Shown here: one piece after another, positions 3,852 to 63,936 of the stretch
Layout: the number at the start of each line of letters is the position of its first letter
Numbering within the stretch: the stretch's first letter is position 1
NCBI GenBank assembly: GCA_036522895.1
Contig: DATDEX010000286.1
Location: 3,929-67,928, forward strand
Length of the DNA: 64,000 nucleotides
Source: Candidatus Eiseniibacteriota bacterium
Lineage (GTDB): Bacteria > Eisenbacteria > RBG-16-71-46
Direction: 5' to 3'
Notes under the pieces: model-generated
Databases searched by the model: none
Seen by the model: only the letters and a program-made list of their open reading frames with translations
What the model was told of the DNA's origin: nothing
Made by a program: the position numbers and the translations under genes

Positions 3852-4808
3852 ATGTCCCGCGTCGTCCTTGCTTCGTTGCTCGCGGTCCTGACGGTCCTCG
3901 TGCTCGCGCCCCGGTGCTTCGCCGACCCACCGGTGGTGGTCTTCTCGACCGACTTCGAGACCGGGCTTCCGGCGCAGTTTTCGGCGCCCGGGGCGGTGAT
4001 CGAAGGCGTGCAGGGGTATTCCGGGCTCGGCCCCGTCGGCCGCCGGTTTGGCGGCAACTTCCTCCACTACACGAGCGTCACGCTGTTCCCGACCACGTTG
4101 ACCGTGCGCAATCTGCCCGCGCACGACCACCTGAGCGTCAAGTCCCTGCTCGCGATCATCGATTCATGGGACGGCACCGAGATCATGCAGATCTCGGTCG
4201 ACGGCAACCTTCGCTTCGCCAACCGGTTCTCGCTCGCGCTTGCGGATACGACCACCTATTCTCCCGCCCCGCCCGGCGCGATCCTCAGCATGGGGAGGGA
4301 ACTCGGCTTCTCGCTCGGCAGTTACTACGCCCGCGACCGCGCCTACGACCTGGGTGTCGAGCCCGCGTTTCTCGACCTGCCGCACACGGCGGACTCCGTG
4401 GTGGTCGCCTGGACGATCAGCGCGCTCTCCGGGCCCGCGGCCGATCAATGGCAGGGCGGCGGCGACGAATCGTGGGGGATCGACGCGATCTCGGTGGAGG
4501 TCTCCTCGCAGACGACCGGCGTCGGCACGGACCCCGCGTCGGTCCACTTCGCCGTGCGCGCGACTCCCAATCCCGCGCGGGACGGCCTCGTGCGGCTGCA
4601 GCTCGTGCTCCCGGCTTCGGGTGGGGCGCTCGTGGAGCTGATCGACCTCGCCGGCCGGCAGGTGTCCTCGCGTGAGCTGGATTCCGCCGCCGCCGGGAAG
4701 CGGTCGGTGGAGTTGCCGATCCCGTCGGGGCTCGCGCCGGGTCTGTACTTCGCCCGGGTGACGCAGGGCGCGGCGGCGCGCGCCACGAGGGTGATCGTTC
4801 AGAACTGA
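3852..4808 (+). CDS. Secreted protein with T9SS-type C-terminal sorting domain
   Basis: GGAGG ribosome-binding site at 3842-3847. Signal peptide MSRVVLASLLAVLTVLVLA. C-terminus ...PNPARDGLVRLQLVLP...LYFARVTQGAAARATRVIVQN matches the CTD repeated across this window. The six-frame ORF begins at 3792; the Met at 3852 is preferred. Confidence 0.6.
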   Translation: MSRVVLASLLAVLTVLVLAPRCFADPPVVVFSTDFETGLPAQFSAPGAVIEGVQGYSGLGPVGRRFGGNFLHYTSVTLFPTTLTVRNLPAHDHLSVKSLLAIIDSWDGTEIMQISVDGNLRFANRFSLALADTTTYSPAPPGAILSMGRELGFSLGSYYARDRAYDLGVEPAFLDLPHTADSVVVAWTISALSGPAADQWQGGGDESWGIDAISVEVSSQTTGVGTDPASVHFAVRATPNPARDGLVRLQLVLPASGGALVELIDLAGRQVSSRELDSAAAGKRSVELPIPSGLAPGLYFARVTQGAAARATRVIVQN

Positions 4809-4884
4809 CGCCGCTCGCCGAGAGGCTCGGCCGTACGTCGCACGCAGCGACCCACGCGCCGACGATTCGGCGCTTCGCGTCGGC

Positions 4885-5595
4885 ATGGAGGGGGCTGAAC
4901 GCATGGCGAGTGTCGGGCTGGTGGGAGGACTGGGTCCGGAGTCCACGATCGATTACTACCGCCGTATCCTCGAGCGGTGGGAGCGGGAGCGCCCGGGGAG
5001 TGCGCCCTCGATCGTCATCGACAGCCTCGACGTGCAGATGGGGCTGCGCCTCGTGCAACACGACCGGGCCGGGCTCCTCGCGTATCTCCGAGCGTCACTC
5101 GAGCGATTGGTCGGCGCGGGCGTGAGCTTCGCCGCGCTCACGGCGAACACGCCCCACCTGGTGTTCGACGACCTCGCGGCGGGCTCCCCGGTCCCGCTCA
5201 TCAGCATCGTCGAGACCTGCGCCGGGGAGGCGAGGCGCCGCGGCTTCACGCGCCTCCTGCTGCTCGGGACGCGCTTCACGATGGAGGGCGCGTTTTTTCC
5301 TACGGTATTCGGCCGGCATGGGCTCTCGCTCGTGCCGCTCGAGCGTGCCGACGTGGCCTGGGTGCACGAGCGCTACGTCGGCGAGCTCCTGAAGGGCGAT
5401 TTCCGCGACGAGACGCGGCAACGGTTCGTTGAGCTCGTGGACCGCGTGCGCCGCGAGTCGGGGATCGAGGCTGTGATCCTCGGCGGCACCGAGTTGCCGT
5501 TGCTTCTCCGCGCCACCGAGATCGGCGGCGTCCCGCTGCTCGACACGACCGCGCTCCACGTCGACGCCATCGTGGCACGGCTGCTGGTGGGGTAG
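4885..5595 (+). CDS. Asp/Glu/hydantoin racemase family protein (aspartate racemase-like)
   Basis: N-terminus VGLVGGLGPESTIDYY and the second-half motif are typical of the Asp/Glu racemase family. The size (about 230 aa) fits. Confidence 0.7.
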   Translation: MEGAERMASVGLVGGLGPESTIDYYRRILERWERERPGSAPSIVIDSLDVQMGLRLVQHDRAGLLAYLRASLERLVGAGVSFAALTANTPHLVFDDLAAGSPVPLISIVETCAGEARRRGFTRLLLLGTRFTMEGAFFPTVFGRHGLSLVPLERADVAWVHERYVGELLKGDFRDETRQRFVELVDRVRRESGIEAVILGGTELPLLLRATEIGGVPLLDTTALHVDAIVARLLVG

Positions 5596-5600
5596 CGCGG

Positions 5601-6219: not shown

Positions 6220-7923
6220 ATGGCCAGCATCCGCATTCCCGCCGCCCTCGCGACCGCGTCGATCCTGCTCGCCGCCGCCAGCGCGCACGCCCAGACGGCC
6301 ACGGCCGGCACGCCGGTCTCCGACACCCACCTCGCCGACGAGAGCCATGCGGGCGTGCTCGCCGACGGTACGGGCGGCGCCTACGTGGGGTACAAGATCG
6401 CCTATCGAAGTGCCTCGTTCCCCGCCGAGATCGCCGTGGCTCGCGTGCTGCCGTCCGCGGGGCGCCACCCCGACTGGAGCCCGCTGCCGATGACCCCGGC
6501 GGGTTCGCTCGCGCAGACGAACCCGCCGGGCCCCTCGCGGCTCCTGAGGGCACCGCAGGGCGAAGTGCTCGCCTTCGCCGACTTCGGGACCACCTCGACG
6601 CCGCAGGACGTGGTACGCGAGCGCGCGACGCTCGGCGCCGATCCGGCGTACCCGGGATTCAAGCCGAGCTACTCGTACAACGTCTTCAACGTCGTGTCCC
6701 GCAGCGATGGCGGCGCACTCATCCTGAGCAAGGCGCTCGGCAGCATCAACCTGCTCGCCACCGTCGTGAGCCCCTCCGGCGCCGGGACGGAGGTGTTCAC
6801 GCCGCTCTCGCTCAGCAACGGCGTCACGGCCACCCTCGGGGGCGACCGACTCGCAGCCGTGCCGAGCGGCGTGGACGGCGGCATCGCTGTGATCCTCCTG
6901 CCGCAGATCAACCTTTCGGCGACCGGCATCGACATGGTCGCCGTGCGCGTGGATGGCACCGGTCACCCGGTGTGGCTCCCCGCGCACCGGGTGGTGACCA
7001 GCGCGCCGCGCGACCAGATGGAGGAGGTCGCGGTGAGCGATGGTGCGGACGGTGTGATCATCGCGTGGCGCGACGATCAGAACATTCCGACGGGGTCCGA
7101 CATCTATACCGTGCGCCTGCTCTCGACCGGCGCGGTGGCCACGGGCTGGGGCGGGGGAAAGACGATCGCCATGGTCGCCGGCGCGCAATACGCACCGAGC
7201 ATCGCGAGCGACGATGCGGGCGGCGCGTGGTTCGCCTGGGTGGACGAGCGGAACCTGATGCTCGGCGGTACGGACATTTACATCTCACACCTGCTCGCGA
7301 ACGGGACGCTCGCCGCTGGCTTCGTCGCGAACGGGCGCGCGCTGTGCGACCAGCCGGGCGACCAGACCGCGGTCCAGCTCGCGCGCGACGGGAGCGGCGG
7401 CTGTTTCGCCGTGTGGCTCGACGCACGCGATGGCGAGGCGGATCTCTATGCCCAGCACCTGAACGCCGCCGGTGACCCGACCGCGCACTGGGCCGCGGGG
7501 GGGACGGCGGTGTGCACCGACGGGACCGCACAGGAGCTCCCGGCGATCGACCTGGTCTCGACCGGTCGCGCGATCACGGCATGGAACGACCGGCGGACCG
7601 GCGCCAGCATCGTCTACGCGGCGGCGCTCGACGCGGGACTGGGCGTGCTGGCGGTGCCGCGCGACGCGGGGCCGCGCCTCGCCCTGGCCCCGGTGGCCAA
7701 TCCCGCCCGGGACGCGCTCGAGCTACGGCTGGATGCGGCGGACGCGGGCGACGTGCGCGTGACGTTGTTCGACGTCTCTGGCCGGGTGCGAGCCGAGCGC
7801 ACGCTCGCGGGTCCCGCGCGCGAGCGGAGCCTGCGCTTCGTCGGGCTCCCGCCCGGGCTCTACCTCGCGCGCGCCTCGCAGTCGGGCTCGACGACGCTCA
7901 CGCGCGTCGCGGTCCTGCGCTGA
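6220..7923 (+). CDS. Secreted protein with T9SS-type C-terminal sorting domain
   Basis: GGAAAGGAG ribosome-binding site. Signal peptide MASIRIPAALATASILLAAASAHAQ. C-terminus ...PNPARDALELRLD...LYLARASQSGSTTLTRVAVLR. Confidence 0.6.
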   Translation: MASIRIPAALATASILLAAASAHAQTATAGTPVSDTHLADESHAGVLADGTGGAYVGYKIAYRSASFPAEIAVARVLPSAGRHPDWSPLPMTPAGSLAQTNPPGPSRLLRAPQGEVLAFADFGTTSTPQDVVRERATLGADPAYPGFKPSYSYNVFNVVSRSDGGALILSKALGSINLLATVVSPSGAGTEVFTPLSLSNGVTATLGGDRLAAVPSGVDGGIAVILLPQINLSATGIDMVAVRVDGTGHPVWLPAHRVVTSAPRDQMEEVAVSDGADGVIIAWRDDQNIPTGSDIYTVRLLSTGAVATGWGGGKTIAMVAGAQYAPSIASDDAGGAWFAWVDERNLMLGGTDIYISHLLANGTLAAGFVANGRALCDQPGDQTAVQLARDGSGGCFAVWLDARDGEADLYAQHLNAAGDPTAHWAAGGTAVCTDGTAQELPAIDLVSTGRAITAWNDRRTGASIVYAAALDAGLGVLAVPRDAGPRLALAPVANPARDALELRLDAADAGDVRVTLFDVSGRVRAERTLAGPARERSLRFVGLPPGLYLARASQSGSTTLTRVAVLR

Positions 7924-9621: not shown

Positions 9622-12600
9622 TCAATGGAGCACCACGACTTTTCGCGTCCGCGTCTGCGCGCCGCTGCTCAGCCTGACCAGGTAGACGCCGCTCGGCATG
9701 CGCGCCCCGACGGCGTCGCGCGTGTCCCAGCGGGCCGTGCTCCGGCCGGCGCGCGCCGGGCCCTGCGCGATCACGCGCACGCGGCGGCCGGCCAGATCGT
9801 AAACCGCCAGCTCGAGCGCGGCGCCGTTCTGCTCGATCGGCACGCCGAAGGCGAACTGCAGTTCCGTACGCACCGGGTTGGGATGCGGTGCGGCAAGCTC
9901 GAGCGTGCGGGGCGCGACGTCCAGCGCCGGCTCGACGCCGACCGCGTCCGTGGTCTCGCTAAAGCCGGTGCGCCGGGCATCGTGGTGGAACTGCGGCCAC
10001 GGGGCAGGGCCCGCGGGCGAGAACGGGAAGTCGTAGTCCCACACGTGCACCGTGCCGCCGAAATCGACGGTGACGATTTCGCTCATCCCGTCGCCGTCGC
10101 AATCGCACAAGGCCGGCGTGCCCGAGGCTTCGGCGGACATCGTGATGGGGAATCCCGGCAGCATGGCGCCGGTCACCCCGCTCAGCGCCGCGAGCGATCC
10201 GTTCTCGTCGCCCACGACGACGTCATTCACGCCGTCGCCGTTGATGTCGGCCACCACCGGGCTCGCGATCGTCGCGTCGCTCGTGAGCGAAGAAAAGCGC
10301 GAGGCGGCCGTCCATGGCGGGACGGCGGCGCCGTTCCGGTCGAACACGTACACGCGCCCGTTGCCGGAGGCGAGCACGATGTCGGTGAATCCGTCGCCGT
10401 TCATGTCGGCGAGCGCGGGCGAGGATCCCTGGCCGATCCCGGCGGGCGGGAGGAACACCGGGAACCCGGGGCGGCTCGCTCCGTTCGCCAGTTGGACGTG
10501 GATCGAGCCGTCGGCAACCGGTACCACGATCGAGAGCTGCCCGGCGGGCCCATCCAGCCGTCCGACCGCGACCGAGCCGAGGATCGGGGCGCCGAGATTG
10601 ACCGGGAACCCCGTCACGTTCGTTCCGTCCGGCTTCCATGCGTACAGGAACCCATCCGCGCTGCCGTACACGATGGCCAGCTGCCCGGGGCCGAGCAGCG
10701 GGGCGAGCGCCGGAGTGCCGGTGTTGAAGCCATTCCCGAGCGTCTTGAACACCCCGATCGTGGCCGGGTTGAGGTCGCCGTCGAGCCATTCGCTGCCGTC
10801 CGCGCGAAACGCGTAGAGCGCCGCCCCGAGCGATCCGAACACGATCTCCTGGTGCTGATCGCCGTTCAAATCGCCGACGGCCACGCTCGACCAGATCGGG
10901 TCAGGCAACGGCACCGGGAATCCGGGGCGCGGTACCCCCTGGGCATCGAACGCGAGGAGCTGCTTCGACGTGAACGTCGCGCCGATCACGTCGCGTCCGC
11001 CATCGCCGTCGAGGTCGGCGAACGATCCTCCGCCCCGGTAGAATCGGCCGAGCGTCGTGAAGTCGCCCGGGGTGGCGCTCGAACCATCGGCATCCACCGG
11101 CGCGGTGCCGTTGGAGTGGAACAGGTGAAGCACGTTGCCACCCACGAGAATGTCCATGCCCCCGCCGCTCGCCCGCGCCACCGCCACCGGGGTCTCGGAC
11201 GTCTCGCGCGTGAACGCGGGGAAGCCGCCGTGATCCGCCGGACCCGTGCTCGCCGAAGCCGGAGCGCTCGGGCTCGATTCGTTCCCCGAGCTGTCCACCG
11301 CGGTCACCTCGTAGTAGTAGCGCGCGAGCGGGGCCAGGTCCGCATCCGCCCAGCTCGAGGTTCGTCCGAGCGGGAGCGGCGTGACCTTCACGAACGGACC
11401 GGCGGCGGCGACGGCGCGATACACGTTGTAGCCCGCGAGGTCCGGCGCCGGATCGTGCTCCCACTCGAGCGTCACGCGGCCCGCGCCGCCTGCGGCGGCG
11501 ACCGCGTTGACCGCGGCCGGATAGCCCATGTCCAGGAGCTGGGTGAGGCGTGATCCGGTCGCGTCGTCGATCTCGAGCAGGAGTTTCGCGTCGGCGCTCC
11601 CGGGCACGAAGCGCACCGGCGTGGTGCTGGCCTCCGCGCCCGGCGGCAGATCGGGCAGCGTGAGCGTCGAGTCGAGCACGACCGCCAAGCCATCGAGGTC
11701 TCGCAGGTGGCCGACGAGCGCGTGCGCGTCGGCCTTGCCCACGTTACGCACCCGGAACGTGTAGCGGACGGTCTCGCCCGGCTGCGGCCGGCCGTCGTTG
11801 TTGCCGGCCTCCTCGCTCTCGGCATGCGCGACCTGCACGAGCTCCGGTGAGCGGAGAAGCAACTGGAAGTGCTGCTGCTGCTGGAGGCCGCCATCCCCGG
11901 CAAGGTCGAGCGTGAACGCGACCTCGTGCTGGTCGGGAGCGTCGGGATCGATCGCGACCCGGAAGCCGCTGGCCGGGGAGGAGGTGGCGGCGGGATCGAT
12001 CGCGCCGTAGTCGGCCGTGGGAACCGGAATCGTGATCCAGGGATCCGCGGTGCTCAGCGTGCCGGTGACCGCGGCCGCAGGCGTCCCGCCCGCGTTGTGC
12101 ACGGGCACCACCAGGTCCACGAGCTCGCCCGCGTCGGGAAGGCCATCCGCGTCGCCGTGCCGGCCCGCGAACGAATCGTCGAGCACGGCCGGGGCCGCTG
12201 CCTGGAGCGCGGCGGGAGCGCCCGCCACCACCCGGAGCGATCGCCGCCAGGGGCGCGCGTTGAACGCCGTCACCGTGAGCGAGCAGGCGCCGACCGAGTC
12301 GGGGTGGAACTGCAGCATCGCGTTGCCCGACCCGTCGGTCAACGCGGAGCGGTACTCGTGGCCCGGCAACCATGCCGTGACCCGCGCGCCGAAAAGCGGC
12401 GTGCCGGCCACGGCGACCGCGACTGCGAGCTGGCCCTCTCCGGCCGCGATCGAATCGGGCGCCGTTACGGTCAGCTCGCGCGGGCGCGCCGTGAAGATGC
12501 GCAGCTCGGGATCGCCGAGCAGCAGGAGCTCCAGCTCGCTCAGCCGGCCGAAGCCGTCGGATTGCGACACGCCGACGAACGGCAGTTTCTGCCGGGCTTG

Positions 12601-14205
12601 CGCCTCGCCCACGGCCGTCACGCTGTCCTGGAACAGCACGCGGAAGTACTCCCGCTGGAACCCCCGGCTGAACTTCGGATAATCGAGCCGCGTCGAGCCG
12701 ATGTTCGTGACCGCACCGCCCGCCGGGGCGCGGAGGAGCGCCTCGCCGATCGAGGCGAAATCGATCGCGTTCGAGGTGCAATCGATGGCGTAGAAGTTCA
12801 TCAGCCGGTCGCCGTTGGTGAGCGCGTGCATGTCGGGGTTGCTCAGGTTGTCGTCGCCGCACGACATCACCTCCCGGTACCCGTGCCCGACGTGCGTCAC
12901 GAGGTTGTATCCGACCTGGAGGGAGTCGAACACCGCCGCGCGCGTCTCGTGCACCGACCCGGGCCGCCAGCTCGGGTTCGAGTCGTTCTGGTACATGCGG
13001 GCCACGTGCATGTTCGGAACGCCGTCGAGGATCGGCATCTCGTCCGACTCCACGATCTGGGCGCCATCGAGCTGCACCAGCTGGCCGGGGCTCCAGGGCT
13101 CAGGCGTGATCACCTGGGCAAAGAAGAGGGCGTTTTCCATGTAGTCGGCAACCGGGGTCCGCTCGTACTTGAGCGTCTTCCGCACGAACAACTCGGCATC
13201 GGCCGGCGTCACGACCGGTGCGCGCCCGACCCAGACCTCGGGCAGCAGGTCCGCGTCGTCTCCCGCGTCGCCGGGGCCCGCGGACGCTTCCGCGAACAAG
13301 CTGTCGCCATCGGCGTTCCAATTGCCATCGAGACACGAGTAGTAGAGGTCGGTCGGGACGAACTCGTCGTCCAGGAACGACACGTGCGCGATGCGCGGCG
13401 GAATGAGCTCGGTGTCGCCGCCGAGCAGCACCCAGCGCGTGCCCCAGCGGCTGTACGCATCGCGGATGAACAGCCGGACGCGCTCGGGGTCGTCGACCGC
13501 CGCCGGGTACTGTTCGCGAATGAAGCTCAGCGTGCGCACCGCGGCGGGCACCCCGCTCGCGGTCTTCCAGTCCGCGAGCGGCTGGAACGCGGGCACCAGC
13601 GCATCGCTCGTGATGATGAGATAGGCGACCGGGCTCCCGAGCAGTGACGGCACCTGGGTGGGGCGAAACGGCGTTGCCGCGTCGGGGCGGGGAAGGGGGA
13701 CGGCTCGCGGCGCGTCGGCCGGCGTCCCGACCGCCTCGGCGGCGTGCGTCCGGCCCTGTGATCGCTCGGCGCTTGCCGGGGGTGGGCCGCCCGCGTCCTC
13801 CCAGTCCGGCACCACGCGCTCGCGCGGGAGAGGAGCGCTGGTGGATGGCTCGAGGTCGAGCCTCACCCGCAACTCCATCGCGTGCCGCGCGTGCCCCGCG
13901 GGCAGCCCGCAGCCATCGGGAAGCTCGAGCCACGCCAGGTGTCGACCGCGCTGGAAGCCCTGATAGCCGATGCGGACCGTGATCCCGGCGGGGGCGCGCG
14001 CACCGTCCTCCGCGCACTCGAGCGAGACGACCTCGACCCGCGTGATGCGTTGGCCATCCGGAAGGTCGAGCGGTCCGGCGGCGGGCAGGCGGTCCGGGTC
14101 GACCTGGAGCGTCCGGGTCACGGTGACGACCGCGCGGGCCGGGCTCACGAGCGCCAGAAGCAGAAGGGCCGCTAAGCCGGGGAGCCGAATCACGCGCAAG
14201 AGCAT
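9622..14205 (-). CDS. Large secreted C25 (gingipain-type) cysteine peptidase with FG-GAP/VCBS repeats, FN3-like domain and T9SS C-terminal domain
   Basis: Signal peptide MLLRVIRLPGLAALLLLALVSPARA. C25 N-terminal signature YLIITSDALVPAFQPLADW...VLLGGDTELIPPR...DLYYSCLDGNWNADGD...VGRAPV. Multiple DxNGDGxxDVVVG FG-GAP repeats. CTD ending ...VYLVRLSSGAQTRTRKVVVLH. Confidence 0.75.
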   Translation of the reverse strand: MLLRVIRLPGLAALLLLALVSPARAVVTVTRTLQVDPDRLPAAGPLDLPDGQRITRVEVVSLECAEDGARAPAGITVRIGYQGFQRGRHLAWLELPDGCGLPAGHARHAMELRVRLDLEPSTSAPLPRERVVPDWEDAGGPPPASAERSQGRTHAAEAVGTPADAPRAVPLPRPDAATPFRPTQVPSLLGSPVAYLIITSDALVPAFQPLADWKTASGVPAAVRTLSFIREQYPAAVDDPERVRLFIRDAYSRWGTRWVLLGGDTELIPPRIAHVSFLDDEFVPTDLYYSCLDGNWNADGDSLFAEASAGPGDAGDDADLLPEVWVGRAPVVTPADAELFVRKTLKYERTPVADYMENALFFAQVITPEPWSPGQLVQLDGAQIVESDEMPILDGVPNMHVARMYQNDSNPSWRPGSVHETRAAVFDSLQVGYNLVTHVGHGYREVMSCGDDNLSNPDMHALTNGDRLMNFYAIDCTSNAIDFASIGEALLRAPAGGAVTNIGSTRLDYPKFSRGFQREYFRVLFQDSVTAVGEAQARQKLPFVGVSQSDGFGRLSELELLLLGDPELRIFTARPRELTVTAPDSIAAGEGQLAVAVAVAGTPLFGARVTAWLPGHEYRSALTDGSGNAMLQFHPDSVGACSLTVTAFNARPWRRSLRVVAGAPAALQAAAPAVLDDSFAGRHGDADGLPDAGELVDLVVPVHNAGGTPAAAVTGTLSTADPWITIPVPTADYGAIDPAATSSPASGFRVAIDPDAPDQHEVAFTLDLAGDGGLQQQQHFQLLLRSPELVQVAHAESEEAGNNDGRPQPGETVRYTFRVRNVGKADAHALVGHLRDLDGLAVVLDSTLTLPDLPPGAEASTTPVRFVPGSADAKLLLEIDDATGSRLTQLLDMGYPAAVNAVAAAGGAGRVTLEWEHDPAPDLAGYNVYRAVAAAGPFVKVTPLPLGRTSSWADADLAPLARYYYEVTAVDSSGNESSPSAPASASTGPADHGGFPAFTRETSETPVAVARASGGGMDILVGGNVLHLFHSNGTAPVDADGSSATPGDFTTLGRFYRGGGSFADLDGDGGRDVIGATFTSKQLLAFDAQGVPRPGFPVPLPDPIWSSVAVGDLNGDQHQEIVFGSLGAALYAFRADGSEWLDGDLNPATIGVFKTLGNGFNTGTPALAPLLGPGQLAIVYGSADGFLYAWKPDGTNVTGFPVNLGAPILGSVAVGRLDGPAGQLSIVVPVADGSIHVQLANGASRPGFPVFLPPAGIGQGSSPALADMNGDGFTDIVLASGNGRVYVFDRNGAAVPPWTAASRFSSLTSDATIASPVVADINGDGVNDVVVGDENGSLAALSGVTGAMLPGFPITMSAEASGTPALCDCDGDGMSEIVTVDFGGTVHVWDYDFPFSPAGPAPWPQFHHDARRTGFSETTDAVGVEPALDVAPRTLELAAPHPNPVRTELQFAFGVPIEQNGAALELAVYDLAGRRVRVIAQGPARAGRSTARWDTRDAVGARMPSGVYLVRLSSGAQTRTRKVVVLH

Positions 14206-16309: not shown

Positions 16310-16499
16310 GCGGCCTCCGGAAGGAGTGTTGCTTGGGGGAGAGCACGGCAATCTCGAGTCTCAGCGTAGCCGCTCGCTCCAACCGATGAAAGCATCGCCG
16401 GTGCGCCGCCCACCTGTCCGACCGGTATCCGCCGCCACGCAGCACGACCCGACACGGGCGAAGGCCGGCGGATGACCTGGTGTGCGCCTCGTCTCCCCA

Positions 16500-20000: not shown

Positions 20001-21842
20001 ATGACGATCTGGATCCGTCCACGCGTCGCGCTCGTGTTCACGATGTTCCTGGTCGCCGCGCTCGGCGTGGCGATCCGTCCCGCCGCCGCGCAACTCGTCC
20101 CCGGCCCGGCAGAGGGCTACCTCATCATCACGACGAGCGCGCTCGCGAGCGAGTTCCAACTGTTCGCGGAGTGGAAGCGCCGGCTCGGGCTGCCGACCAC
20201 GGTGAAGACCATCGAGGCGCTCCGGTCGGAGTATCCGGCCGCGGCAGACGACGCCGAGCGCATGCGCCTCTGGATCAGGGACCAGTACACCGGCCCTGGC
20301 GCGCGCTGGGTGCTGCTCGGCGGAACGGCCGCGCTCGTTCCCACGCGTTACGCGACCACACAGTTCTTCGGCGGCGCGCTCATCCCCACCGATCTCTATT
20401 TCAGTTGCCTCGATGGCTCGTGGAACGCGGACGGCGATGCGCTCTGGGGAGAAGGCTACGCGAGCGCGAGCGATCCCGGTGACGATGCCGACCTCCTCCC
20501 CGAGGTCTGGGTCGGCCGCGCGCCGGTGACTAACGCGGCGGAAGTACGTGCGTTCGTCGTGCGCAGCATCCAGGCCTCGCTCGAGCCGGCCCACCCCCGG
20601 CCGCCGCGCGCCTTGCTCGCCGCGGAGGTGCTGTTTCCCCAGGTGTGGTCGCAGGGGGACCCGGTGTCGCTCGACGGGGCGCAGCTCGCCGAGGAGTTGC
20701 TGCCGCGGCTGAACGCCGGCGGGTTCGCGACGCGCCGTCTTTACGAGAACTTCAGCGATCCGCAGTGGACCGCCGGGAGCGAGCCGCTCGGCCGGCAGGC
20801 GTTCCTCGACGCGTTCGACGCGGGCAATGATCTCGTGCTCGTGTTCGACTCCGAGACGCAGACCGAGCTAGGCATGGGCGGATCCGACGTCGTGAGCGTG
20901 TCCGACATCGAGGCACTCACGAACACGCTTCCGCTCTCGCACGTGTACTTGTGGGGCGGCCTGGGGCCGTGCGGGCCCGATTCGCCCATCGGCCCCGCGT
21001 TCTTCCATTCACCGGGTGGCTCGCCCAGCGGCGCGGCCACCGTGGTGGGGCTCACGCAGTTCGCGTTCCCGACTGCATTGCGTGCGTACGCCGACGAGTA
21101 CTTCCGACTGCTCATCGACGACGACGTGAGAGCTTTGGGCGAGACGCTGGGCCGCTCGCGGCTTCCGTTCGTCCAATTCTCGGTGTACGACGGCGTGAAC
21201 CGCTGGACGCAGATGGCGCTCACGATGTTCGGCGACCCGCAGCTGAGCCTGCCGCGGCGCGCCGCGCACGACTTGGCGCTCGCCGCGCCCGCGACCGTCG
21301 ACGTTGGGGTGGGCGGAGTTCCGGTCCACGTCACCGAGGACGGCGTCGCCAAGCCGGGCGTCGTCGTGACCGCGTACCGTGCGGCCGAGGGGATCGCGAC
21401 GGCGACGACCGACGCGCAGGGCGACGCGCTCGTGCCGTTCTCCGCGAGCGCATCGGGAGAGATCTCGCTCACGGCTCGCCAACCCGGCTCGCCCGTCGAA
21501 GTCGACAGCGTCGACGCGGTCACCCCGACCGGGGTGCCGGCGCCCCCCGGCGTCACCCGATTCGCGTTTGCGCTGCCCCGGCCCAATCCCAGCTCGGGAG
21601 ACGTCCTCTTCCGCTGGAGCGTGCCCGCCGACCTGGCGGACGCCCGCTCGAGGCTCGTGCTCCACGATCTCGCCGGGCGCATCGTTCGCACCTGGGACGC
21701 GGGGGCGGGAGCCGCGTCCGCTCGCAGCATGACATGGGACGGCCGCGATGCGATGGGCGGCAGCTCGCCCCCCGGGCTCTACGTCGCGCGGCTCGTCGTG
21801 GGCGATCGAGTGCTCACTCGGCTCGTGGTCCGGACGCGCTGA
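20001..21842 (+). CDS. Secreted C25-family peptidase paralog with T9SS C-terminal domain
   Basis: Signal peptide MTIWIRPRVALVFTMFLVAALGVAIRPAAA. N-terminal region is about 50% identical to the 9622-14205 protein (YLIITTSALASEF...VLLGGTAALVPTRY...DLYFSCLDGSWNADGD...VGRAPV). CTD ending ...LYVARLVVGDRVLTRLVVRTR. Confidence 0.65.
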   Translation: MTIWIRPRVALVFTMFLVAALGVAIRPAAAQLVPGPAEGYLIITTSALASEFQLFAEWKRRLGLPTTVKTIEALRSEYPAAADDAERMRLWIRDQYTGPGARWVLLGGTAALVPTRYATTQFFGGALIPTDLYFSCLDGSWNADGDALWGEGYASASDPGDDADLLPEVWVGRAPVTNAAEVRAFVVRSIQASLEPAHPRPPRALLAAEVLFPQVWSQGDPVSLDGAQLAEELLPRLNAGGFATRRLYENFSDPQWTAGSEPLGRQAFLDAFDAGNDLVLVFDSETQTELGMGGSDVVSVSDIEALTNTLPLSHVYLWGGLGPCGPDSPIGPAFFHSPGGSPSGAATVVGLTQFAFPTALRAYADEYFRLLIDDDVRALGETLGRSRLPFVQFSVYDGVNRWTQMALTMFGDPQLSLPRRAAHDLALAAPATVDVGVGGVPVHVTEDGVAKPGVVVTAYRAAEGIATATTDAQGDALVPFSASASGEISLTARQPGSPVEVDSVDAVTPTGVPAPPGVTRFAFALPRPNPSSGDVLFRWSVPADLADARSRLVLHDLAGRIVRTWDAGAGAASARSMTWDGRDAMGGSSPPGLYVARLVVGDRVLTRLVVRTR

Positions 21843-44009: not shown

Positions 44010-45827
44010 ATGAGCGCGCGAGGGGCGCGACGGAGCGTGTCGGCGTGGCCGGCCATCACGAGCCTGGCCTTCGCTTTGCTGCTCGCGTGCGGACGCGCGC
44101 GGGCCGCCGACGAGATCCACTGGACGATGATCAGCCCCACGTCGGTGACGTTCGACTGGCGCGGCGCGAACCCGACGCTCCAGTACGGCCAGACGAACGG
44201 CTACGGCTCCACGGCCACGGGCATCCCGCCGGTTCCGATGCCGTTCTCCTCGCCCGGGCCGTTCTGGGAGGCGCGCGTGGACGGCCTCGAGCCCAACCGG
44301 ACCTATCACTACTCGATCGACGGCGGCCCCGATCACACGTTCCACACGCTGCCGCGGCCCGGGCGGCCGTTCACCGTTTACGTCGAGGGCGATGTCGGCG
44401 ACTCGGTCAAGTACCCCGCCGTGGCCCCCGTGCAGGGGCTGATCGCCGCGGGCGAGCCGTCGTTCGTCCTCGTGGTGGGGGACCTCACCTACGGCCACGA
44501 GGACGGGCTCGCGGCCGTGGATCGGCACTTCGACGACGTCATGCCGTGGTCGCAGGACGCGGCCTACATGCCCGCGTGGGGCAACCACGACTGGGCACTC
44601 ACCGACAGCACCGACAACCTGCGCGACTACACCGGGCGCTTCGAGCTTCCCAACCCCCAGACCTCGCCCGGAGCGCCGGCCGTGAGCTGTTGCGGCGAGG
44701 ACTGGTACTGGTTCGACGCCGGGACCGTGCGCTTCATCGCCTACCCCGAGCCCTACACCGGCGCCTGGCCCGACTGGCACGCGCGGGCGGCGACGTTGAT
44801 GGACCAAGCGCAGGCCGATCCCGCGATCCGGTTCATCGTGACGTTCGGCCACCGCGCGGCGTACTCGTCGGGCTTTCATCCCGGCCTGGTCCAGCTCCGC
44901 TCCATCCTCGACTCGCTCGGTGCGCGGCACGACAAGTACGTGCTCAATGTGAATGGGCACAGTCACAACTACGAGCGGACGCTCCCGCAGTTCGGCGTCA
45001 CGCACGTCACGGCCGGCATCGGCGGCTCGCTCCTCGAGGCGCGGAAGGACACCTGCCTGTGGGTGGGAGGCTGTCCGCCGCCCTCGTGGTCGGCGTTCCG
45101 CGCCTTCCACTACGGCGCGCTGCGACTCGAGTTCGGCCCGCACACGATTCGCGGCGAGGCGAAGTGCGGCCCCCCGGGAAGCCCGAGCGACATTGCCTGT
45201 GGCCTGGGGGAGTCGTTCGATTCGTTTACGATCGGGCACGACGCGGCACCGGTTCTGGCCGGCGCGCCGGCGAGCGTGACCGACACCGCCGGCCGCCCGG
45301 TCGTCGTGGACGTGAGGGTCAGCGACCCGGACGACGACCCGATCGACTCGCTGACCGCCGACCTTTCCCGATTGCCTGCGAACAACGATGCCGTGTTCGT
45401 CCCGGGCTCGGACAACGTCTCGGGCCAGCTCCGATGGACGCCGGCCGCGAGCGACACCGGGACGTACGTGGTGGTGTTTCGGGCGGCGAACGCGCTTGCC
45501 GCCTCGATCTCGACGGTGATCGACGTCCGAGGCGCGCCGCTCCCGCCGCCGCCCCCGCCAAGATTCCTGGCCCTGGATCCCGTGCGCCCGAATCCCGCCG
45601 GCTCGTCGTTCTCGGTCGGCTGTTGGCTCACCGGCCGGGGCACGGCACGACTCGACCTCGTGGACGTCGCTGGGCGCTTGCTGCGCCGGATCGATCTGGG
45701 CCAGCCGGGGGCAGGTCACTACGTCGCGTCGATCCGGATGCCCGGCAACCTGTCCGCCGGCCTCTACTGGCTGCGGCTCGAGGAGGCAGGCCGCACGGTG
45801 TTCGGGCGCGTCGTGTTCCGGCCGTAG
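44010..45827 (+). CDS. Secreted purple-acid-phosphatase-like metallophosphoesterase with T9SS C-terminal domain
   Basis: Signal peptide ...AFALLLACGRARAA. PAP motifs GDLTYGHED (GDxxY), GNHDW (GNH[DE]), GHSHNYERT (GHxH). N-terminal FN3-like domain. CTD ending ...LYWLRLEEAGRTVFGRVVFRP. Confidence 0.75.
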   Translation: MSARGARRSVSAWPAITSLAFALLLACGRARAADEIHWTMISPTSVTFDWRGANPTLQYGQTNGYGSTATGIPPVPMPFSSPGPFWEARVDGLEPNRTYHYSIDGGPDHTFHTLPRPGRPFTVYVEGDVGDSVKYPAVAPVQGLIAAGEPSFVLVVGDLTYGHEDGLAAVDRHFDDVMPWSQDAAYMPAWGNHDWALTDSTDNLRDYTGRFELPNPQTSPGAPAVSCCGEDWYWFDAGTVRFIAYPEPYTGAWPDWHARAATLMDQAQADPAIRFIVTFGHRAAYSSGFHPGLVQLRSILDSLGARHDKYVLNVNGHSHNYERTLPQFGVTHVTAGIGGSLLEARKDTCLWVGGCPPPSWSAFRAFHYGALRLEFGPHTIRGEAKCGPPGSPSDIACGLGESFDSFTIGHDAAPVLAGAPASVTDTAGRPVVVDVRVSDPDDDPIDSLTADLSRLPANNDAVFVPGSDNVSGQLRWTPAASDTGTYVVVFRAANALAASISTVIDVRGAPLPPPPPPRFLALDPVRPNPAGSSFSVGCWLTGRGTARLDLVDVAGRLLRRIDLGQPGAGHYVASIRMPGNLSAGLYWLRLEEAGRTVFGRVVFRP

Positions 45828-54536: not shown

Positions 54537-55770
54537 TCAACGCGTGGACCCAGCGGTCAGTTGCTTCCGCAGGATCCAGACGCGGCCGTCGGACTCGGCG
54601 TAGCTGAACCCCATGTCGATCATGATGCTCCCCAGCATGGTCAGCTCGTTCACGCTGAGCGACACGAAGCGCTCGGGGATCGGCAGGTACGGCGGGTTGG
54701 GCCCCAGGGTGCGCCGGGCGCCGGTGTTCTGATCGGTGAATGAAGTTTTCGGCGTCCCGCCCCACAGCCCCACGTCCGCGAACGCCGTGTCGAGCTTGCT
54801 CTCGCTCATGCACCAGTTGAACGGCGCCACGTCCTGGCTCGTGGCCGGCCCGGTCCAGATCCTGGCGCGGATGCGCCAGCACGCGTCGACGTACTCGAGC
54901 GCCGGATCACCGTAGTCCATCTGCATTCGGTGGGCCGGCTCCTCCTCGATGATCAGCACGACACGCGGCCACATGTTGTTGGCCAGGTTGTAGGGCCAAG
55001 CGTCGAACATAAGATTGAGCTCCGTGTCGCGCACGTTGCGGTAGTACGTCCTGGGCAGGGCTTCGCGGCCGTAGTGGAACTTCCCCGCGCCGCCCGCGCT
55101 GCCCGCGGCGCCAGCGTCGTTCGGCTTCTGCACGAGAACGGCGGCTACCTGGAGGAGCCGCCCGAGCAGGCCTTTCCGCGGCTCCGTGGTGCTGTCCGGA
55201 GTCACTGGGGCGGTCGGGCACGATCGACACTTGGTCGAGTTGTACTCCAGCGGAACCCCCTGTGACGGCAGCAGCGGTTTGCCTGGCCCATTCGCAGAGG
55301 CGACCGTGACGGCGCTGGCGGTGGGACCGGTGCGGGATTCGAACGAGATCTCGTACCCACGGAGCACGGGGCGGCGGCCGTCGAGCACGATCTGCCCGCG
55401 CACGTACGCGTGGTCGCACGCCGGGTGGTTGCACTGGTTGTGTCGCATCCAGTCGAGGTAGTAGTCACTCAATTGATCGAACAGCAGTGTGGCGAGCTCG
55501 TTATTGTCGGCGTCGCGCAGCCAGCCCGGGTAGCAGCAACGCATTCACCGTGCCGTAGGTCTCGATGAAGCGGCCGACCATCGTGGAAGCGGAGTCTTGA
55601 AACTGCGCCGCCGGGAGCGAGGTCCACACCGTTCCCGGCGGCGCCACGGCGATGGTGTCCGTCTTGTTGGACGTCGGAGTGCCGGCGCTGGGGCGCGGGC
55701 TGACTTGCCCGTATGCTGCTGACGCGATCAGGAAAACCACCATTGCAAAAGGAGCGATACGGCTCGTCAT
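54537..55770 (-). pseudogene. Frameshifted gene for a secreted hypothetical protein
   Basis: Signal peptide MTSRIAPFAMVVFLIASAAYGQ starts at 55770, overlapping the upstream gene's stop as ATGA. That frame ends at 55501 (...NALLLPGLAARRRQ*). The adjacent frame continues as ...WLRDADNNELATLLFDQ... for 335 aa from 55544. The join is consistent with a 1-nt indel near 55505-55545. Confidence 0.45.
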
Positions 55771-57248
55771 CGCAGCACGATCGTCGTGCGGCCCGTAACG
55801 ACGCCATCGGTTCGCATGCGCGCATAATAGACACCGCGCGGCGCCCGCGCTCCGCGCTCGTCGCGGCCGTCCCAGACCAGCGGGTGGATGCCGGCCGCCA
55901 GCGACGCACTCGTCAGCAGGCGGCGCACGAGACCGCCCTGCAAGCCGTGGATCGCCACGTCCACGCGGGCGGCGCGCGAAAGCTCCGCGGCGAGGCTCAC
56001 CGCGCCGTGCGCGGGATTGGGGCCGGCGAGCATGAGAGCGAAGCGCGTGGGCAGGCCAGCGGGCGGGACCGAGGTCGTGGGCGAGGTATTCAACAGCACC
56101 GACACGGTGCCGGTGATGGCGCTCGCCACCGCCAAGTCCCGCTTGCCGTCGTGGTTCAGGTCCCCGACCGCCACGCAAGCGGGTCCAGGCGCGGATGGGT
56201 AGTCCGTCTTCGTCTGGAATGTCCCGTCGCCGTTCCCCAGCAGCACCGACACATAGGCGGTTGGCTGAGTGGCGTTCGCCGTGACCAGATCCAACCTACC
56301 GTCGCCGTTGAGATCCCCGATCGCCACGCAAGATGGAGCGGTGAATGTTCCGTAGGGGACATTCGCCGCAAACGTCCCGTCGGGGAGTCCCAGCAGTACC
56401 GACACCGTGGCGGACCCGATGTTCGCCACCGCGAGGTCGGGATTGCCGTCGCCGTCGAAGTACCCAATCGCGACCGATCTGGGGTTGTGCCCGGTCGCGT
56501 AGTCCGCCTTCGTCGGAAAAATCCCGCCGCCGCTCCCCAGCAGCACCGACACCGTGTTGGACCCGTTGTTTGCCACCGCAAGGTCGGGAATAACGTCGCT
56601 GTTGAAATATCCAATCGCGACGGAATAAGGACCGATTCCAGCCGTATAGGGGGTCGCGGACCCGAAGATCCCATGCCCGTTGTTGAACAGCGTGTAGATC
56701 TTGCCTGTCGTGCTGCTCGCCACCGCGAGGTCGGGATGGCCGTCGCCGTTGAGATCCCCGATCGCAACCAATGTTGCCGCCCCCCCGGTGTTGTAGTCCG
56801 CCCTTGTCCCGAACGTCCGGTTGCCGTTCCCCAACCACACCGAGACCCCAAAAAGGATGGCGTTGCCGTTCGTCACCACGATGTCGAGGTTGCCGTCGCC
56901 ATTGACGTCCCCGATCGCCACGGAGGAGATGCCGGACACCCTCGCCGTAGTGTCCTTCCTCGCCGGGAACCCCCCGATGCCGTCACCGTACAGCACCGTC
57001 AGTCCGTTGGCGCCGCCCGCCACCAGGTCGGGGTTGCCATCGTTGTCGAGGTCCCCGATCGCCACGGACGAAAGAAGTCCCAACGTCCCATAGTCCATGT
57101 AGGGCATGAATATGGAGTCCGCGTTGGCCCTCCCGAACGATGTAGCGAGGCAGATGAGGAGGAGCAGGCCCAGACCGGTGCTCGTGCGCGGGGATGGGAG
57201 GTTGCCTGGGAGAGGGCCGCGACGGGAGTGAGCAGGGAGGCAAGTCAT
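55767..57248 (-). CDS. Secreted FG-GAP repeat (integrin-alpha-like beta-propeller) protein with T9SS C-terminal domain
   Basis: Signal peptide ...LLLLICLATSFGRANA. About 7 repeats AIGDxNGDGxPDLAVAN. CTD ending ...VYYARMRTDGVVTGRTTIVLR. Confidence 0.7.
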   Translation of the reverse strand: MTCLPAHSRRGPLPGNLPSPRTSTGLGLLLLICLATSFGRANADSIFMPYMDYGTLGLLSSVAIGDLDNDGNPDLVAGGANGLTVLYGDGIGGFPARKDTTARVSGISSVAIGDVNGDGNLDIVVTNGNAILFGVSVWLGNGNRTFGTRADYNTGGAATLVAIGDLNGDGHPDLAVASSTTGKIYTLFNNGHGIFGSATPYTAGIGPYSVAIGYFNSDVIPDLAVANNGSNTVSVLLGSGGGIFPTKADYATGHNPRSVAIGYFDGDGNPDLAVANIGSATVSVLLGLPDGTFAANVPYGTFTAPSCVAIGDLNGDGRLDLVTANATQPTAYVSVLLGNGDGTFQTKTDYPSAPGPACVAVGDLNHDGKRDLAVASAITGTVSVLLNTSPTTSVPPAGLPTRFALMLAGPNPAHGAVSLAAELSRAARVDVAIHGLQGGLVRRLLTSASLAAGIHPLVWDGRDERGARAPRGVYYARMRTDGVVTGRTTIVLR

Positions 57249-57751: not shown

Positions 57752-58330
57752 ATGGTCGCCTACCGCTCCGATCCGCCGTCGCCACTCGGGGGCCATACGG
57801 GTGCGCCTGCCGGTGATCGCCGCCATCTGGACGAGGTCTTCAGCGTCGCGTACGAAGAGTTGCGGCGGCTGGCGGCGAGCGTTCGCCGACGGGAAAGGAG
57901 CGTCACGCTCAATCCCACGGCGTTGGTGAACGAGGCCTGGATCAAGCTCGCGAGCAACCCGAAACTGGCGCAAACCTCGCAGCCACACTTCAAGCGCATC
58001 GCCGCGCGCGCCATGCGGCAGGTGCTGGTCGAAGCGGCTCGGCGGCGCTCGGCACGCAAACGCGGCGGTCCCGAAGCCGTCTTCGTGACCTTCGACGAGT
58101 CGGTCCGCGCCGCCGCCGCTTGGGCCGACGACGTCGTCGAGCTCGATGCGGCGCTCGAGCGGCTGGCCTCGCTCAATCCCCGGCAGGCGCAGCTGGTCGA
58201 AAGTCGGTTCTTTGGCGGGCTCGATGTGCCCGAAGCGGCCCGGCTCCTCGGTGTCTCCGAGGCGACGGCGCAGCGCGACTGGCGCGCAGCGCGCGCCTGG
58301 CTCTCCAGCGAGCTGCGTTCATCCGCATGA
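57752..58330 (+). CDS. ECF-type sigma-70 family RNA polymerase sigma factor (the type that co-occurs with Ser/Thr kinases)
   Basis: Region 2 (VFSVAYEELRRLAAS...LVNEAWIKL) and region 4 HTH (LVESRFFGGLDVPEAARLLGVSEATAQRDWRAARAWL). Confidence 0.7.
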   Translation: MVAYRSDPPSPLGGHTGAPAGDRRHLDEVFSVAYEELRRLAASVRRRERSVTLNPTALVNEAWIKLASNPKLAQTSQPHFKRIAARAMRQVLVEAARRRSARKRGGPEAVFVTFDESVRAAAAWADDVVELDAALERLASLNPRQAQLVESRFFGGLDVPEAARLLGVSEATAQRDWRAARAWLSSELRSSA

Positions 58331-58346
58331 AGCTCTGCGGTCGCGC

Positions 58347-60992: not shown

Positions 60993-61144
60993 CGGGTTTT
61001 CGAACGATCCTGCGCATTGGAGGGTGAGGGCGAAAACGCCCCGGCAACCGGAGTCTCGAGCATCGTAGAATCCCACGCTCTTCCAGTTTGCTGACAGTGA
61101 GCCTTGGAACAGCGCGGACCAACCACCCCAGAGGAGGCATAGCC

Positions 61145-62293: not shown

Positions 62294-62400
62294 AGCAGTG
62301 CGCCAGGGGCCGGGCGAACGAAGCCCGGCTCCGGTTCGACGCCTGCTGCGTCGGTTGAATCAGCGCGCCGGGTGCGCCGCGATCAGAAAGAAGGCTCGTC

Positions 62401-63936
62401 GTGTCCCGAATGCCGCTGGCTGCCGCCACATCACTCTTACTGTTCTCACTCGCGGCGCCCTCTGCCCACGCGACTTTCCTTCAGCAGGGCGCGAAGTTGG
62501 TCGGCACCGGTGCGGTGGGCAATGCGTTTCAGGGATACTCCGTCTCGCTGTCCGCGGACGGGAACACCGCGATCGTGGGTGGGGCCAGCGACAAGATTGG
62601 CGCGGGAGCCACGTGGGTGTACACGCGCAGCGCCGGCGTCTGGAGCCAGCAGGGCGCAAAGCTGTTCGGCACGGGCGCGGTGGGCACTGCGGAGCAGGGA
62701 GTGTCCGTCTCGCTGTCCGCGGATGGGAACACTGCCGTGGTGGGCGGGTACGGTGACAACAGCAGCCGCGGAGCCGCGTGGATTTTCACCCGCAGCGCCG
62801 GCGTGTGGAGCCAGCAGGGCACGAAGCTGGTCGGCACGGGCGCGGTGGGATTTGCGCAACAAGGCGACGCCGTCGCGCTGTCCGCGGACGGGAACACCGC
62901 TGTCGTGGGTGGGAATTTCGACAACCATGGCGTTGGAGCCGTGTGGGTGTACACGCGCAGCGGCAGCGTCTGGAGTCAGCAGGGCACGAAGCTGGTCGGC
63001 GCGGATGCGGTGGGCATCGCGAACCAGGGATGTTCCGTCTCACTCTCCGCGGATGGGAACACTGCGGTCGTGGGTGGGAATGTCGACAACGCGAACGCGG
63101 GAGCGGCGTGGGTGTTCACCCGCACCGCCGGCGTGTGGAGCCAACAGGGCGCGAAGCTGGTTGGCACGGGCGCGGTGGGCGCTGCAGAGCAGGGACTGTC
63201 CGTCTCGCTGTCCGCGGATGGGAACACGGCTGTCGTTGGTGGGAGCCGCGACGACTCTGGCGAGGGAGCCGCCTGGGTGTACAACCGCACGGGTAGCGTG
63301 TGGGGCCAGCAGGGCGCGAAGCTGGTCGGCACGACCGCCGCGTTGAGCACCACGGCCCAGGGAGGATCCGTGTGGCTGTCCGCGGACGGGAACACCGCTG
63401 TCGTGGGTGGGGCCAGCGACAACGCTGGCGCGGGAGCCGCCTGGGTGTTCACGCGGAGCGCGGGCGTGTGGAGCCAGCAGGGCGCGAAGCTGGTCGGCAC
63501 GGGCGCAGCGGGCGCTGCGGGCCAAGGACGCTCCGTCTCGCTGTCCGCGGACGGGCTCACCGCCTTCGTGTGTGGGATTTTCGACAACTCTGGCGCGGGA
63601 GCCGCGTGGGTGTTCATGAGCGATGCCACCACCGGTGTCCCGCTCGAGCCGACGCCGCGGCCGGGCGTGCTGATGGCGACGCCCAACCCGTTCCTGTGCC
63701 AGACGTCCCTTCTGTTGACGCTGCCGGTGGCGGAGGACGTGGAGGTCTCAGTTTGGGATGTCAGCGGCCGCCTCGTTTGCCGGATGCCGCGGGCATCGAT
63801 GGCGGCAGGGCAGCATCCGATTCCATGGTTCGGACAGGATGACAGGGGCCAGCGCGTGAAAGCCGGTATCTATTTCGTGCATGTTCGCGGGAACTCTGGC
63901 CTGGACCTCTGCAAGACGGTCGTTCGGCTACGATAG
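62401..63936 (+). CDS. Secreted FG-GAP_2 tandem-repeat protein with T9SS C-terminal domain
   Basis: Signal peptide MSRMPLAAATSLLLFSLAAPSAHA. Seven 55-aa units VGTGAVGxAxQGxSVSLSADGNTAVVGG..DN.G.GAAWVFTRSAGVWSQQGAKL. CTD ending ...IYFVHVRGNSGLDLCKTVVRLR. Confidence 0.7.
   Translation: MSRMPLAAATSLLLFSLAAPSAHATFLQQGAKLVGTGAVGNAFQGYSVSLSADGNTAIVGGASDKIGAGATWVYTRSAGVWSQQGAKLFGTGAVGTAEQGVSVSLSADGNTAVVGGYGDNSSRGAAWIFTRSAGVWSQQGTKLVGTGAVGFAQQGDAVALSADGNTAVVGGNFDNHGVGAVWVYTRSGSVWSQQGTKLVGADAVGIANQGCSVSLSADGNTAVVGGNVDNANAGAAWVFTRTAGVWSQQGAKLVGTGAVGAAEQGLSVSLSADGNTAVVGGSRDDSGEGAAWVYNRTGSVWGQQGAKLVGTTAALSTTAQGGSVWLSADGNTAVVGGASDNAGAGAAWVFTRSAGVWSQQGAKLVGTGAAGAAGQGRSVSLSADGLTAFVCGIFDNSGAGAAWVFMSDATTGVPLEPTPRPGVLMATPNPFLCQTSLLLTLPVAEDVEVSVWDVSGRLVCRMPRASMAAGQHPIPWFGQDDRGQRVKAGIYFVHVRGNSGLDLCKTVVRLR
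62488..63650 (+). repeat. Seven tandem 165-bp intragenic repeats encoding the FG-GAP_2 units
   Basis: Unit starts at 62488, 62653, 62818, 62983, 63148, 63313 and 63486, all beginning GGC(G/A)CGAAGCTGGTCGGCAC. Units are about 80-90% identical at the nucleotide level. Confidence 0.8.

Follow-up and report, generated by a model that had tools for sequence, protein, structure and literature searches.

The 64-kb stretch of DNA analysed here (the window) belongs to a 69.6-kb contig of a soil metagenome-assembled genome (MAG) of Candidatus Eisenbacteria, held in GenBank as third-party annotation (TPA). Eleven of its roughly 46 genes encode proteins that end in the same homologous domain, about 95 amino acids (aa) in each. 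This C-terminal domain (CTD) resembles the type A sorting domains of type IX secretion systems (T9SS), and the proteins that carry it are numbered cargo 1 to cargo 11 (Table 1). The GC content lies between 0.64 and 0.715 across the window, with a flat profile and no compositional break. Since many shadow open reading frames (ORFs) occur at such high GC, the genes were picked by third-position GC and then cross-checked against the public gene calls for the same contig. In GenBank the proteins of the contig are HEY6195590-HEY6195638, with locus tags from VI504_11170 onward. The identical sequence is also present in soil metagenome assemblies at ENA (ERZ923663/ERR1044072, PRJEB10725) and in several samples of the Joint Genome Institute (JGI), on contigs of up to 69.6 kb.

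A hidden Markov model (HMM) of the 11 tails was used to search the full set of six-frame ORFs that reach 40 aa (798 ORFs). It found exactly those 11 (E <= 5e-21), and the next ORF stood at E = 0.17. The match ends 0-1 residue before the stop codon in every one of the 11. To avoid the circularity of such a search, leave-one-out HMMs were also built, each from the other ten copies. All 11 copies were recovered, at 29-78 bits (E 3.6e-8 to 2.6e-23), with cargo 7 the weakest, and the best non-member ORF reached at most 9.2 bits (E >= 0.05). Beyond the window, the 69.6-kb contig has no further copy. Aligned over their last 100 residues, the 11 ORFs give the consensus ..PNPA...L.L.D..GR.V...PPGLY.ARL....RVVVLR, which agrees with the motif pattern described earlier from the letters of the stretch and a list of its ORFs (the sequence-only reading). 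That reading had counted at least 13 cargo genes. The CTD is present at each of the 11 ORF positions that it listed, but the count is 11 rather than 13 because the two C25 paralogs, 9622(-) and 20001, were already among the listed ORFs and so had been entered twice.

All 11 proteins have a plausible signal peptide: from a start codon that is itself plausible, each shows a hydrophobic h-region and, after it, an AxA-type site, as judged by a heuristic and by inspection rather than by SignalP. These calls are least certain for cargo 6 and cargo 10, where they depend on the start codon chosen; cargo 6, whose copy of the CTD lacks the PNP motif, has the least certain start and signal peptide of the whole set.

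The proteins in front of the CTD (the passengers) are unrelated to one another in most cases, and Pfam bore out the families that had been assigned to them from the sequence: two C25 proteins, two Kelch proteins, two FG-GAP proteins (with FG-GAP repeats also in the larger C25 protein), a BNR protein, a GH32/43-like protein and a metallophosphatase. No Pfam domain was recognised in the passenger of cargo 1, which had no PDB sequence match either. The passenger of cargo 2 likewise had no PDB sequence match, and its repeats, seen by eye, suggest a beta-propeller. The two Kelch proteins, cargo 5 and cargo 8, are paralogs with 34-37% identity. Repeats of the propeller type were found in eight of the 11 proteins, and it is toward these that the set is skewed; the skew toward peptidases that had been proposed was not found, as only one of the 11 is a catalytically intact peptidase. 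The cargo is a mixed surface and nutrient-scavenging set rather than a dedicated proteolysis operon.

Table 1. CTD-bearing genes and peptide-transporter genes of the window, with profile scores in bits (PGAP, Prokaryotic Genome Annotation Pipeline; MFS, major facilitator superfamily; TM1, first transmembrane segment)
Feature	Coordinates	Strand	Length (aa)	Passenger or family	CTD	Profile scores	Leave-one-out	Signal peptide, motif or annotation
Cargo 1	3852..4808	+	318	family not recognised	4506-4805	TIGR04183 35.1		signal peptide MSRVVLASLLAVLTVLVLAPRCFA; PGAP HEY6195595, T9SS type A sorting domain-containing protein
Cargo 2	6220..7923	+	567	~50-aa repeats (..W.D.R....DIY...L...G)	7621-7920	TIGR04183 24.1	40.1	signal peptide ends AHA
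Cargo 3	9622..14205	-	1527	gingipain-like C25, Fn3-like and FG-GAP/beta-propeller	9625-9924	PF01364 213; FG-GAP_3 72.7; FlgD_ig 33.9; TIGR04183 40.2		
Cargo 4	20001..21842	+	613	C25 paralog of cargo 3	21540-21839	PF01364 103; FlgD_ig 29.3; TIGR04183 19.4 (sub-cutoff)	63	
Cargo 5	23399..25975	+	858	Kelch beta-propeller	25673-25972	Kelch families up to 223; TIGR04183 34.0		signal peptide ends SRA
Cargo 6	35088..36638 (also 35049 start)	+	516	GH32/GH43-like five-bladed propeller	36336-36635	Glyco_hydro_32N 42.3; GH43 23.9; TIGR04183 23.8	43	
Cargo 7	39432..40739	-	435	BNR/Asp-box (sialidase-like) propeller	39435-39734	BNR 29.6; TIGR04183 25.2	29.1	
Cargo 8	40978..43557	-	859	Kelch beta-propeller	40981-41280	Kelch families up to 519; FlgD_ig 29.2; TIGR04183 32.6		signal peptide from start 43557
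Cargo 9	44010..45827	+	605	purple-acid-phosphatase-like metallophosphoesterase and Ig-like domain	45525-45824	Metallophos 29; TIGR04183 17.5 (sub-cutoff)	46.5	
Cargo 10	55767..57248	-	446-493, by start choice	FG-GAP propeller	55770-56069	FG-GAP_3 178.8; FlgD_ig 32.1; TIGR04183 E 0.01-1 (sub-cutoff)	57.8	
Cargo 11	62401..63936	+	508-511	FG-GAP_2 repeats	63634-63933	FG-GAP_2 49.3; FlgD_ig 33.1; TIGR04183 28.6		PGAP HEY6195638
POT/PTR2 transporter	46799-48328	-				PTR2 (PF00854) 45.5, cutoff 27		ExxER motif ELCER in TM1
Second POT-like MFS protein	14849-16351	-		probable POT-type transporter		Pfam MFS_1 only		27% identity (E 5e-37) to the first; ExxER motif EMFER

Identity of the C-terminal domain and its proposed sorting route

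Eight of the 11 tails (cargo 1, 2, 3, 5, 6, 7, 8 and 11) score above the curated cutoff of 23 bits for NCBIfam TIGR04183, the model of the type A T9SS CTD; cargo 4, cargo 9 and cargo 10 fall below it. The best Pfam match of the tail is PF13860 (FlgD_ig, cutoff 27 bits), which five of the 11 tails pass with scores of 29-34 bits. Ten of the 11 pass one or other of these two cutoffs. Cargo 9 passes neither, yet it is homologous to the rest by the leave-one-out search.

When a profile of the tail was compared with the sequences in PDB, solved T9SS CTDs were matched through to the last residue (RgpB at 28.3 bits, mirolase 24.4, PorU 19, PorZ 18 and NucA 17.4). An AlphaFold2 model of the tail is a seven-strand sandwich with a predicted local distance difference test (pLDDT) score of 84.6. 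Foldseek placed two T9SS CTDs, 8glk_D (TMt 0.66) and 8qb1_A (TMt 0.63), among its matches, along with many generic Ig-like domains. The modelled fold is compatible with T9SS CTDs and does not discriminate between these and generic Ig-like domains.

Type A CTDs have a PNP motif, a D..GR.V motif, a G.Y..R motif and a terminal basic motif, and the tail shares these. As in the type A cargo of Bacteroidota, such as the Porphyromonas gingivalis gingipains RgpB and Kgp, the domain in the window is Ig-like, about 80-100 aa long, and forms the extreme C-terminus of Sec-exported proteins that are otherwise unrelated, and one of the cargo proteins is itself a gingipain-family (C25) peptidase with a His/Cys dyad. 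There are also differences from the Bacteroidota cargo. The host is a member of Candidatus Eisenbacteria and not of Bacteroidota; the tails score equally well or better against FlgD_ig, with the Pfam T9SS model below its threshold; and the local density of cargo is unusually high (24% of genes), with beta-propeller proteins dominant.

Taken together, the terminal position, motifs, signal peptides and HMM evidence are best read as a sorting domain of the type A T9SS class, in a subtype that also resembles FlgD_ig. The 11 proteins are probably Sec-exported cargo that is sent to a T9SS encoded elsewhere in the genome. In such a route, Sec would export the 11 proteins to the periplasm, and the CTD would then direct each of them to a type IX secretion translocon whose genes lie in another part of the genome. 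The CTD would be removed, and the protein would be released or attached to the cell surface. The proteins exported in this way would for the most part be beta-propeller modules that bind or act as enzymes (Kelch, FG-GAP, BNR and GH32/43-like), with a gingipain-like endopeptidase, its inactive paralog and a phosphatase.

Several results weigh against this reading. Pfam's own T9SS model, PF18962 (Por_Secre_tail, cutoff 27 bits), stayed below its cutoff in every reported copy, at about 20-24 bits. The top PDB sequence matches of the tail profile were the Ig-like domains of FlgD (30-34 bits), over the central part of the domain only. A T9SS core gene was seen neither in the window nor elsewhere on the contig, nor among those flanking genes of related loci that were checked. 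None of the Eisenbacteria C25 proteins examined is a canonical PorU: their scores reach 107 bits at most, where the PorU model has its cutoff at 420 bits. In the literature searched, no link between Eisenbacteria and T9SS was found.

Some of these results could be explained if the tail were a FlgD-type Ig-like domain with a structural, adhesive or other role outside T9SS, or if it were recognised by another, undescribed export or anchoring system of Eisenbacteria. In this lineage a second, unrelated C-terminal tag (described below) also indicates that the sorting repertoire is not fully known. The likeness to the Ig-like domain of FlgD, the flagellar hook-capping protein, extends over the central strands, and it is at mid-domain that the alignments to FlgD stay, whereas with solved T9SS CTDs the alignment continues to the final residue. 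No full FlgD is present among the 11 proteins, in which matches to FlgD models cover the Ig-like part only and are far under cutoff. The tail, unlike FlgD, is always terminal, at the very end of varied and unrelated secreted enzymes and propellers with signal peptides, which is the behaviour of a sorting signal, and it has the PNP-led N-terminal strand and the terminal basic motif that are typical of T9SS CTDs. With most copies also above the curated TIGR04183 cutoff, a FlgD-type domain or another recognition system is a rather unlikely explanation.

The two resemblances are reflected in public annotation. Homologous tails are named 'T9SS type A sorting domain-containing protein' by NCBI in Zixibacteria, Latescibacteria and Eisenbacteria, and 'FlgD immunoglobulin-like domain containing protein' in Krumholzibacteria and Gemmatimonadota. 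Fragments with such tails are often called 'flagellar hook assembly protein FlgD' by JGI, which looks like a misannotation that arises because PF13860 captures this subtype of CTD. On the contig itself, two of the 11 (HEY6195595 and HEY6195638) have the PGAP name 'T9SS type A sorting domain-containing protein'.

That the window holds no T9SS machinery genes, as the sequence-only reading had said, was borne out: Pfam and NCBIfam scans of the ORFs gave no component family, and neither did the Pfam hits already computed for the public gene calls. The neighbours of C25 orthologues that were scanned, from 79 related loci, were housekeeping genes (GltX, pyruvate kinase, UvrD-type helicase, SBP_bac_5 and ABC/HlyD/MacB), with no T9SS core gene among them. 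A C25-domain search of a set of 5.8 billion proteins returned no PorU-named protein. A tblastn search of plasmids gave only two matches, both to CTDs of Salinibacter, and a literature search on the sister candidate phyla and type IX secretion gave nothing useful. As no C25 protein of PorU grade turned up, it is conceivable, with a low probability, that Eisenbacteria lack the canonical attachment and sortase module of T9SS and that a non-canonical route handles FlgD-like CTDs of this subtype. Candidates for a pair that processes the tails would be the conserved gingipain-like C25 protein and its conserved, catalytically dead paralog; alternatively, the route might be an altogether different outer-membrane exporter.

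The second C-terminal tag is short, [ST]-W-G-x-[IVL]-K-x-x-[YW]-R-stop, and was seen on at least 22 signal-peptide-bearing proteins in Eisenbacteria and in high-GC, Gemmatimonadota-like loci. It has no copy inside the window. One copy lies directly outside it on the same contig (L088 997-1692(-), HEY6195590, 'hypothetical' in PGAP). Others are at L017 2213-3064, L018 7728-8519(-), L020 17061-17903, L025 5264-6655, L029 3954-5288 and 5322-6632, L038 16445-17014(-), and in L047, L056 and L059. The genes with this tag are often directly 5' of a gene for a C25 protein with a CTD. The tag has no Pfam match and its bearer is 'hypothetical' in PGAP; it is therefore not a named sorting signal, and it hints at an unexplored sorting repertoire in Eisenbacteria.

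Read as T9SS cargo, the 11 genes would add Candidatus Eisenbacteria, a soil phylum that is uncultured, to the groups with T9SS-type cargo, here in a dense local cluster, and they make a concrete list of likely surface and secreted proteins for it. Public annotation catches part of the set, both in the PGAP names and in the 'FlgD' names of JGI. Nothing in the domain family, in its logic or in the passenger families is new, and the cluster does not change the understanding of T9SS – it is an ordinary feature, in part annotated automatically.

The C25 proteins

The larger C25 protein, cargo 3, has intact GHG and DC catalytic motifs when aligned to RgpB, and an alignment of 28 members of its family shows conservation of 90% or more for the catalytic His and Cys. 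By its residues it is a gingipain-like C25 peptidase that is predicted to be catalytically intact. Cargo 4 is 40% identical to cargo 3 by BLASTP; DSE replaces GHG in it, and GG replaces DC. The same His and Cys losses are repeated in 11 homologues from other metagenomes, and homologues of about 610 aa from many soil metagenomes keep them. On this ground cargo 4 belongs to a conserved family of secreted pseudo-gingipains, with the C25 fold yet predicted to be inactive. The pseudo-C25 gene, 20001-21842(+), lies about 6 kb from its intact paralog.

The closest relatives of the 1527-aa protein in a scan of GTDB species representatives are in Eisenbacteria MAGs, at 76%, 68% and 45-67% identity. Relatives with 25-37% identity were found among the GTDB representatives of Latescibacterota, Krumholzibacteriia, Zixibacteria, Ignavibacteria, Gemmatimonadota, KSB1, Cloacimonadota and a few Bacteroidota. 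A second type of C25 protein with a CTD, about 1150 aa long and from another clade of Eisenbacteria, is also gingipain-like.

PorU, the T9SS CTD sortase (NF033707; PDB 6za2), likewise combines the C25 fold with a type A CTD that it retains. If one of the C25 proteins were the PorU-type sortase of this lineage, T9SS machinery would be in the window after all. PorU is the top NCBIfam match of the 1527-aa protein and of its CTD, and the large C25 gene with its CTD is conserved across Eisenbacteria and many related phyla, amid housekeeping genes. The scores are low, however – cargo 3 reaches 86.1 bits and cargo 4 24.5 bits against NF033707, whose equivalog cutoff is 420 bits. Relatives of cargo 3 reach 65-107 bits, including a member from a Cytophagia genome at only 96 bits. 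The profile of the C25 family is closer to the gingipains, with 131.7 bits to RgpB and 93.5 to Kgp in PDB against 49.2 to PorU. The C25 domain of cargo 3, unlike that of PorU, is near the N-terminus and is followed by Fn3-like and propeller regions. The porV gene commonly adjoins porU in Bacteroidota, and in the loci checked nothing PorV-like was found next to the C25 genes. The identification of a C25 protein with a CTD as PorU was rejected on the scores, the nearness to RgpB and the neighbourhood, and a sortase role of this kind is very improbable.

In the window the neighbours of cargo 3 are a 77-aa ORF and the YchF, RidA and MFS genes; in the relatives, those of its orthologue are GltX, pyruvate kinase, a UvrD-type helicase and SBP_bac_5. 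The SBP_bac_5 gene, of the oligopeptide type, is directly 5' of the large C25 orthologue and on the same strand in several Eisenbacteria (L008 7365-8996, L016 8048-9622). RidA and the POT-like MFS gene occupy its position in the window.

Density of the cluster and the peptide-uptake genes

The CTD cargo makes up 11 of the approximately 46 genes in the window (24%) and about 34% of its bases. In 18 related Eisenbacteria loci (276 kb, of which about 190 kb lie outside the C25 orthologue), only two further CTD genes were found, or about one per 95 kb. The window has ten CTD genes besides that orthologue in 59 kb, one per 5.9 kb, which is about 16 times denser than the flanks of the 18 related loci; these loci are a small and non-random sample of the background, and this counts as one more point against the reading preferred above. 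Old paralog pairs (C25/C25 and Kelch/Kelch), recognised by sequence, account for part of the local density.

No tRNA or Rfam element was found in the window, and no integrase or transposase domain in the scanned ORFs. With the GC profile flat as well, a mobile genomic island was rejected, and the word 'island' in the sequence-only reading can only mean a local cluster because there is no mobile-element hallmark or GC shift. The CTD genes form a loose chromosomal cluster that is neither a mobile island nor a demonstrable regulon. Both strands carry them, and the distances between them reach 50 kb. Between them are genes for YchF, RidA, a family B DNA polymerase, an Asp/Glu racemase, SET-domain proteins, three Ser/Thr kinases, a pyridoxal-phosphate (PLP) decarboxylase, glycosyltransferases and two-component regulators. 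In a weak test, no motif was shared by the 130 nt upstream (5') of the 11 cargo genes, and the best k-mers occurred in three or four of the 11. The proposal of a regulon finds no support in the strands, the interspersed housekeeping genes or the upstream regions.

The regulon had been proposed specifically for extracellular protein degradation and peptide uptake, from the C25 peptidases, an S9 oligopeptidase and two POT importers. The S9 enzyme is real, a signal-anchored prolyl oligopeptidase of 729 aa. Of the two importers one passes the POT model, and the other, which passes MFS_1 alone, is a probable POT-type transporter by its similarity to the first and its ExxER motif (Table 1). One POT gene is two genes away from the gene for the intact C25 peptidase, which makes a tie between this protease and peptide uptake plausible. 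In P. gingivalis, secreted gingipains, periplasmic S9 exopeptidases and peptide transporters combine in peptide-based nutrition (PMC8048996). The window is alike in that genes for a secreted protease of the gingipain kind, for an S9 peptidase and for POT transporters occur together in 64 kb.

Co-regulated protein degradation and peptide uptake would account for these genes, and in other Eisenbacteria for the peptide-type SBP_bac_5 gene directly before the C25 orthologue. The cargo itself points elsewhere. Unlike the P. gingivalis system, it is mostly non-proteolytic: one of the 11 proteins is an intact peptidase, the second C25 protein is without the catalytic residues, and propeller-repeat proteins, a glycosidase-like protein and a phosphatase make up most of the remainder. 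The scattered arrangement of the cargo genes over both strands, with housekeeping genes between them, and the lack of a common upstream motif give co-regulation no support. A proteolysis and peptide-uptake regulon is not supported for the region as a whole, and this explanation of it is unlikely.

Other genes of the window

Three signal-peptide proteins without a CTD are in or next to the cluster. Two stand among the cargo genes: one of 223 aa at 22496-23167(-), with a weak precomputed match to 3keto-disac_hyd (PF06439), and one of 179 aa at 19213-19752(+), with no assigned family. The third, directly beyond the window on the same contig (L088 2747-4129(-)), is a BNR/sialidase-family protein of 460 aa.

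The gene at 16696-19026(+), between the POT-like gene and the pseudo-C25 gene, encodes a family B DNA polymerase whose exonuclease domain is of the RNase_H_2 type. At 53925-54368(+) there is an ORF of 147 aa with an ammonium-transporter domain; it is far too short for a complete transporter and is therefore probably a gene fragment or a pseudogene.

Three Ser/Thr kinases of the eukaryotic type are encoded in the 64 kb, at 178-1896(+), 1982-3790(+) and 58347-60992(+). One of them has a fused alpha/beta-hydrolase domain, and one has fused tetratricopeptide (TPR) repeats. The kinase with TPR repeats, at 58347-60992, belongs to a row of four genes on one strand, 57752-63936(+), in which it is preceded by an extracytoplasmic function (ECF) sigma factor (57752-58330) and followed by a CsgG/HfaB-like lipoprotein (61145-62293) and by cargo 11 (here 62410-63936). 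Another Eisenbacteria locus likewise has a CsgG-like gene (L025 4205-5185(-)) next to its tagged and C25 genes.

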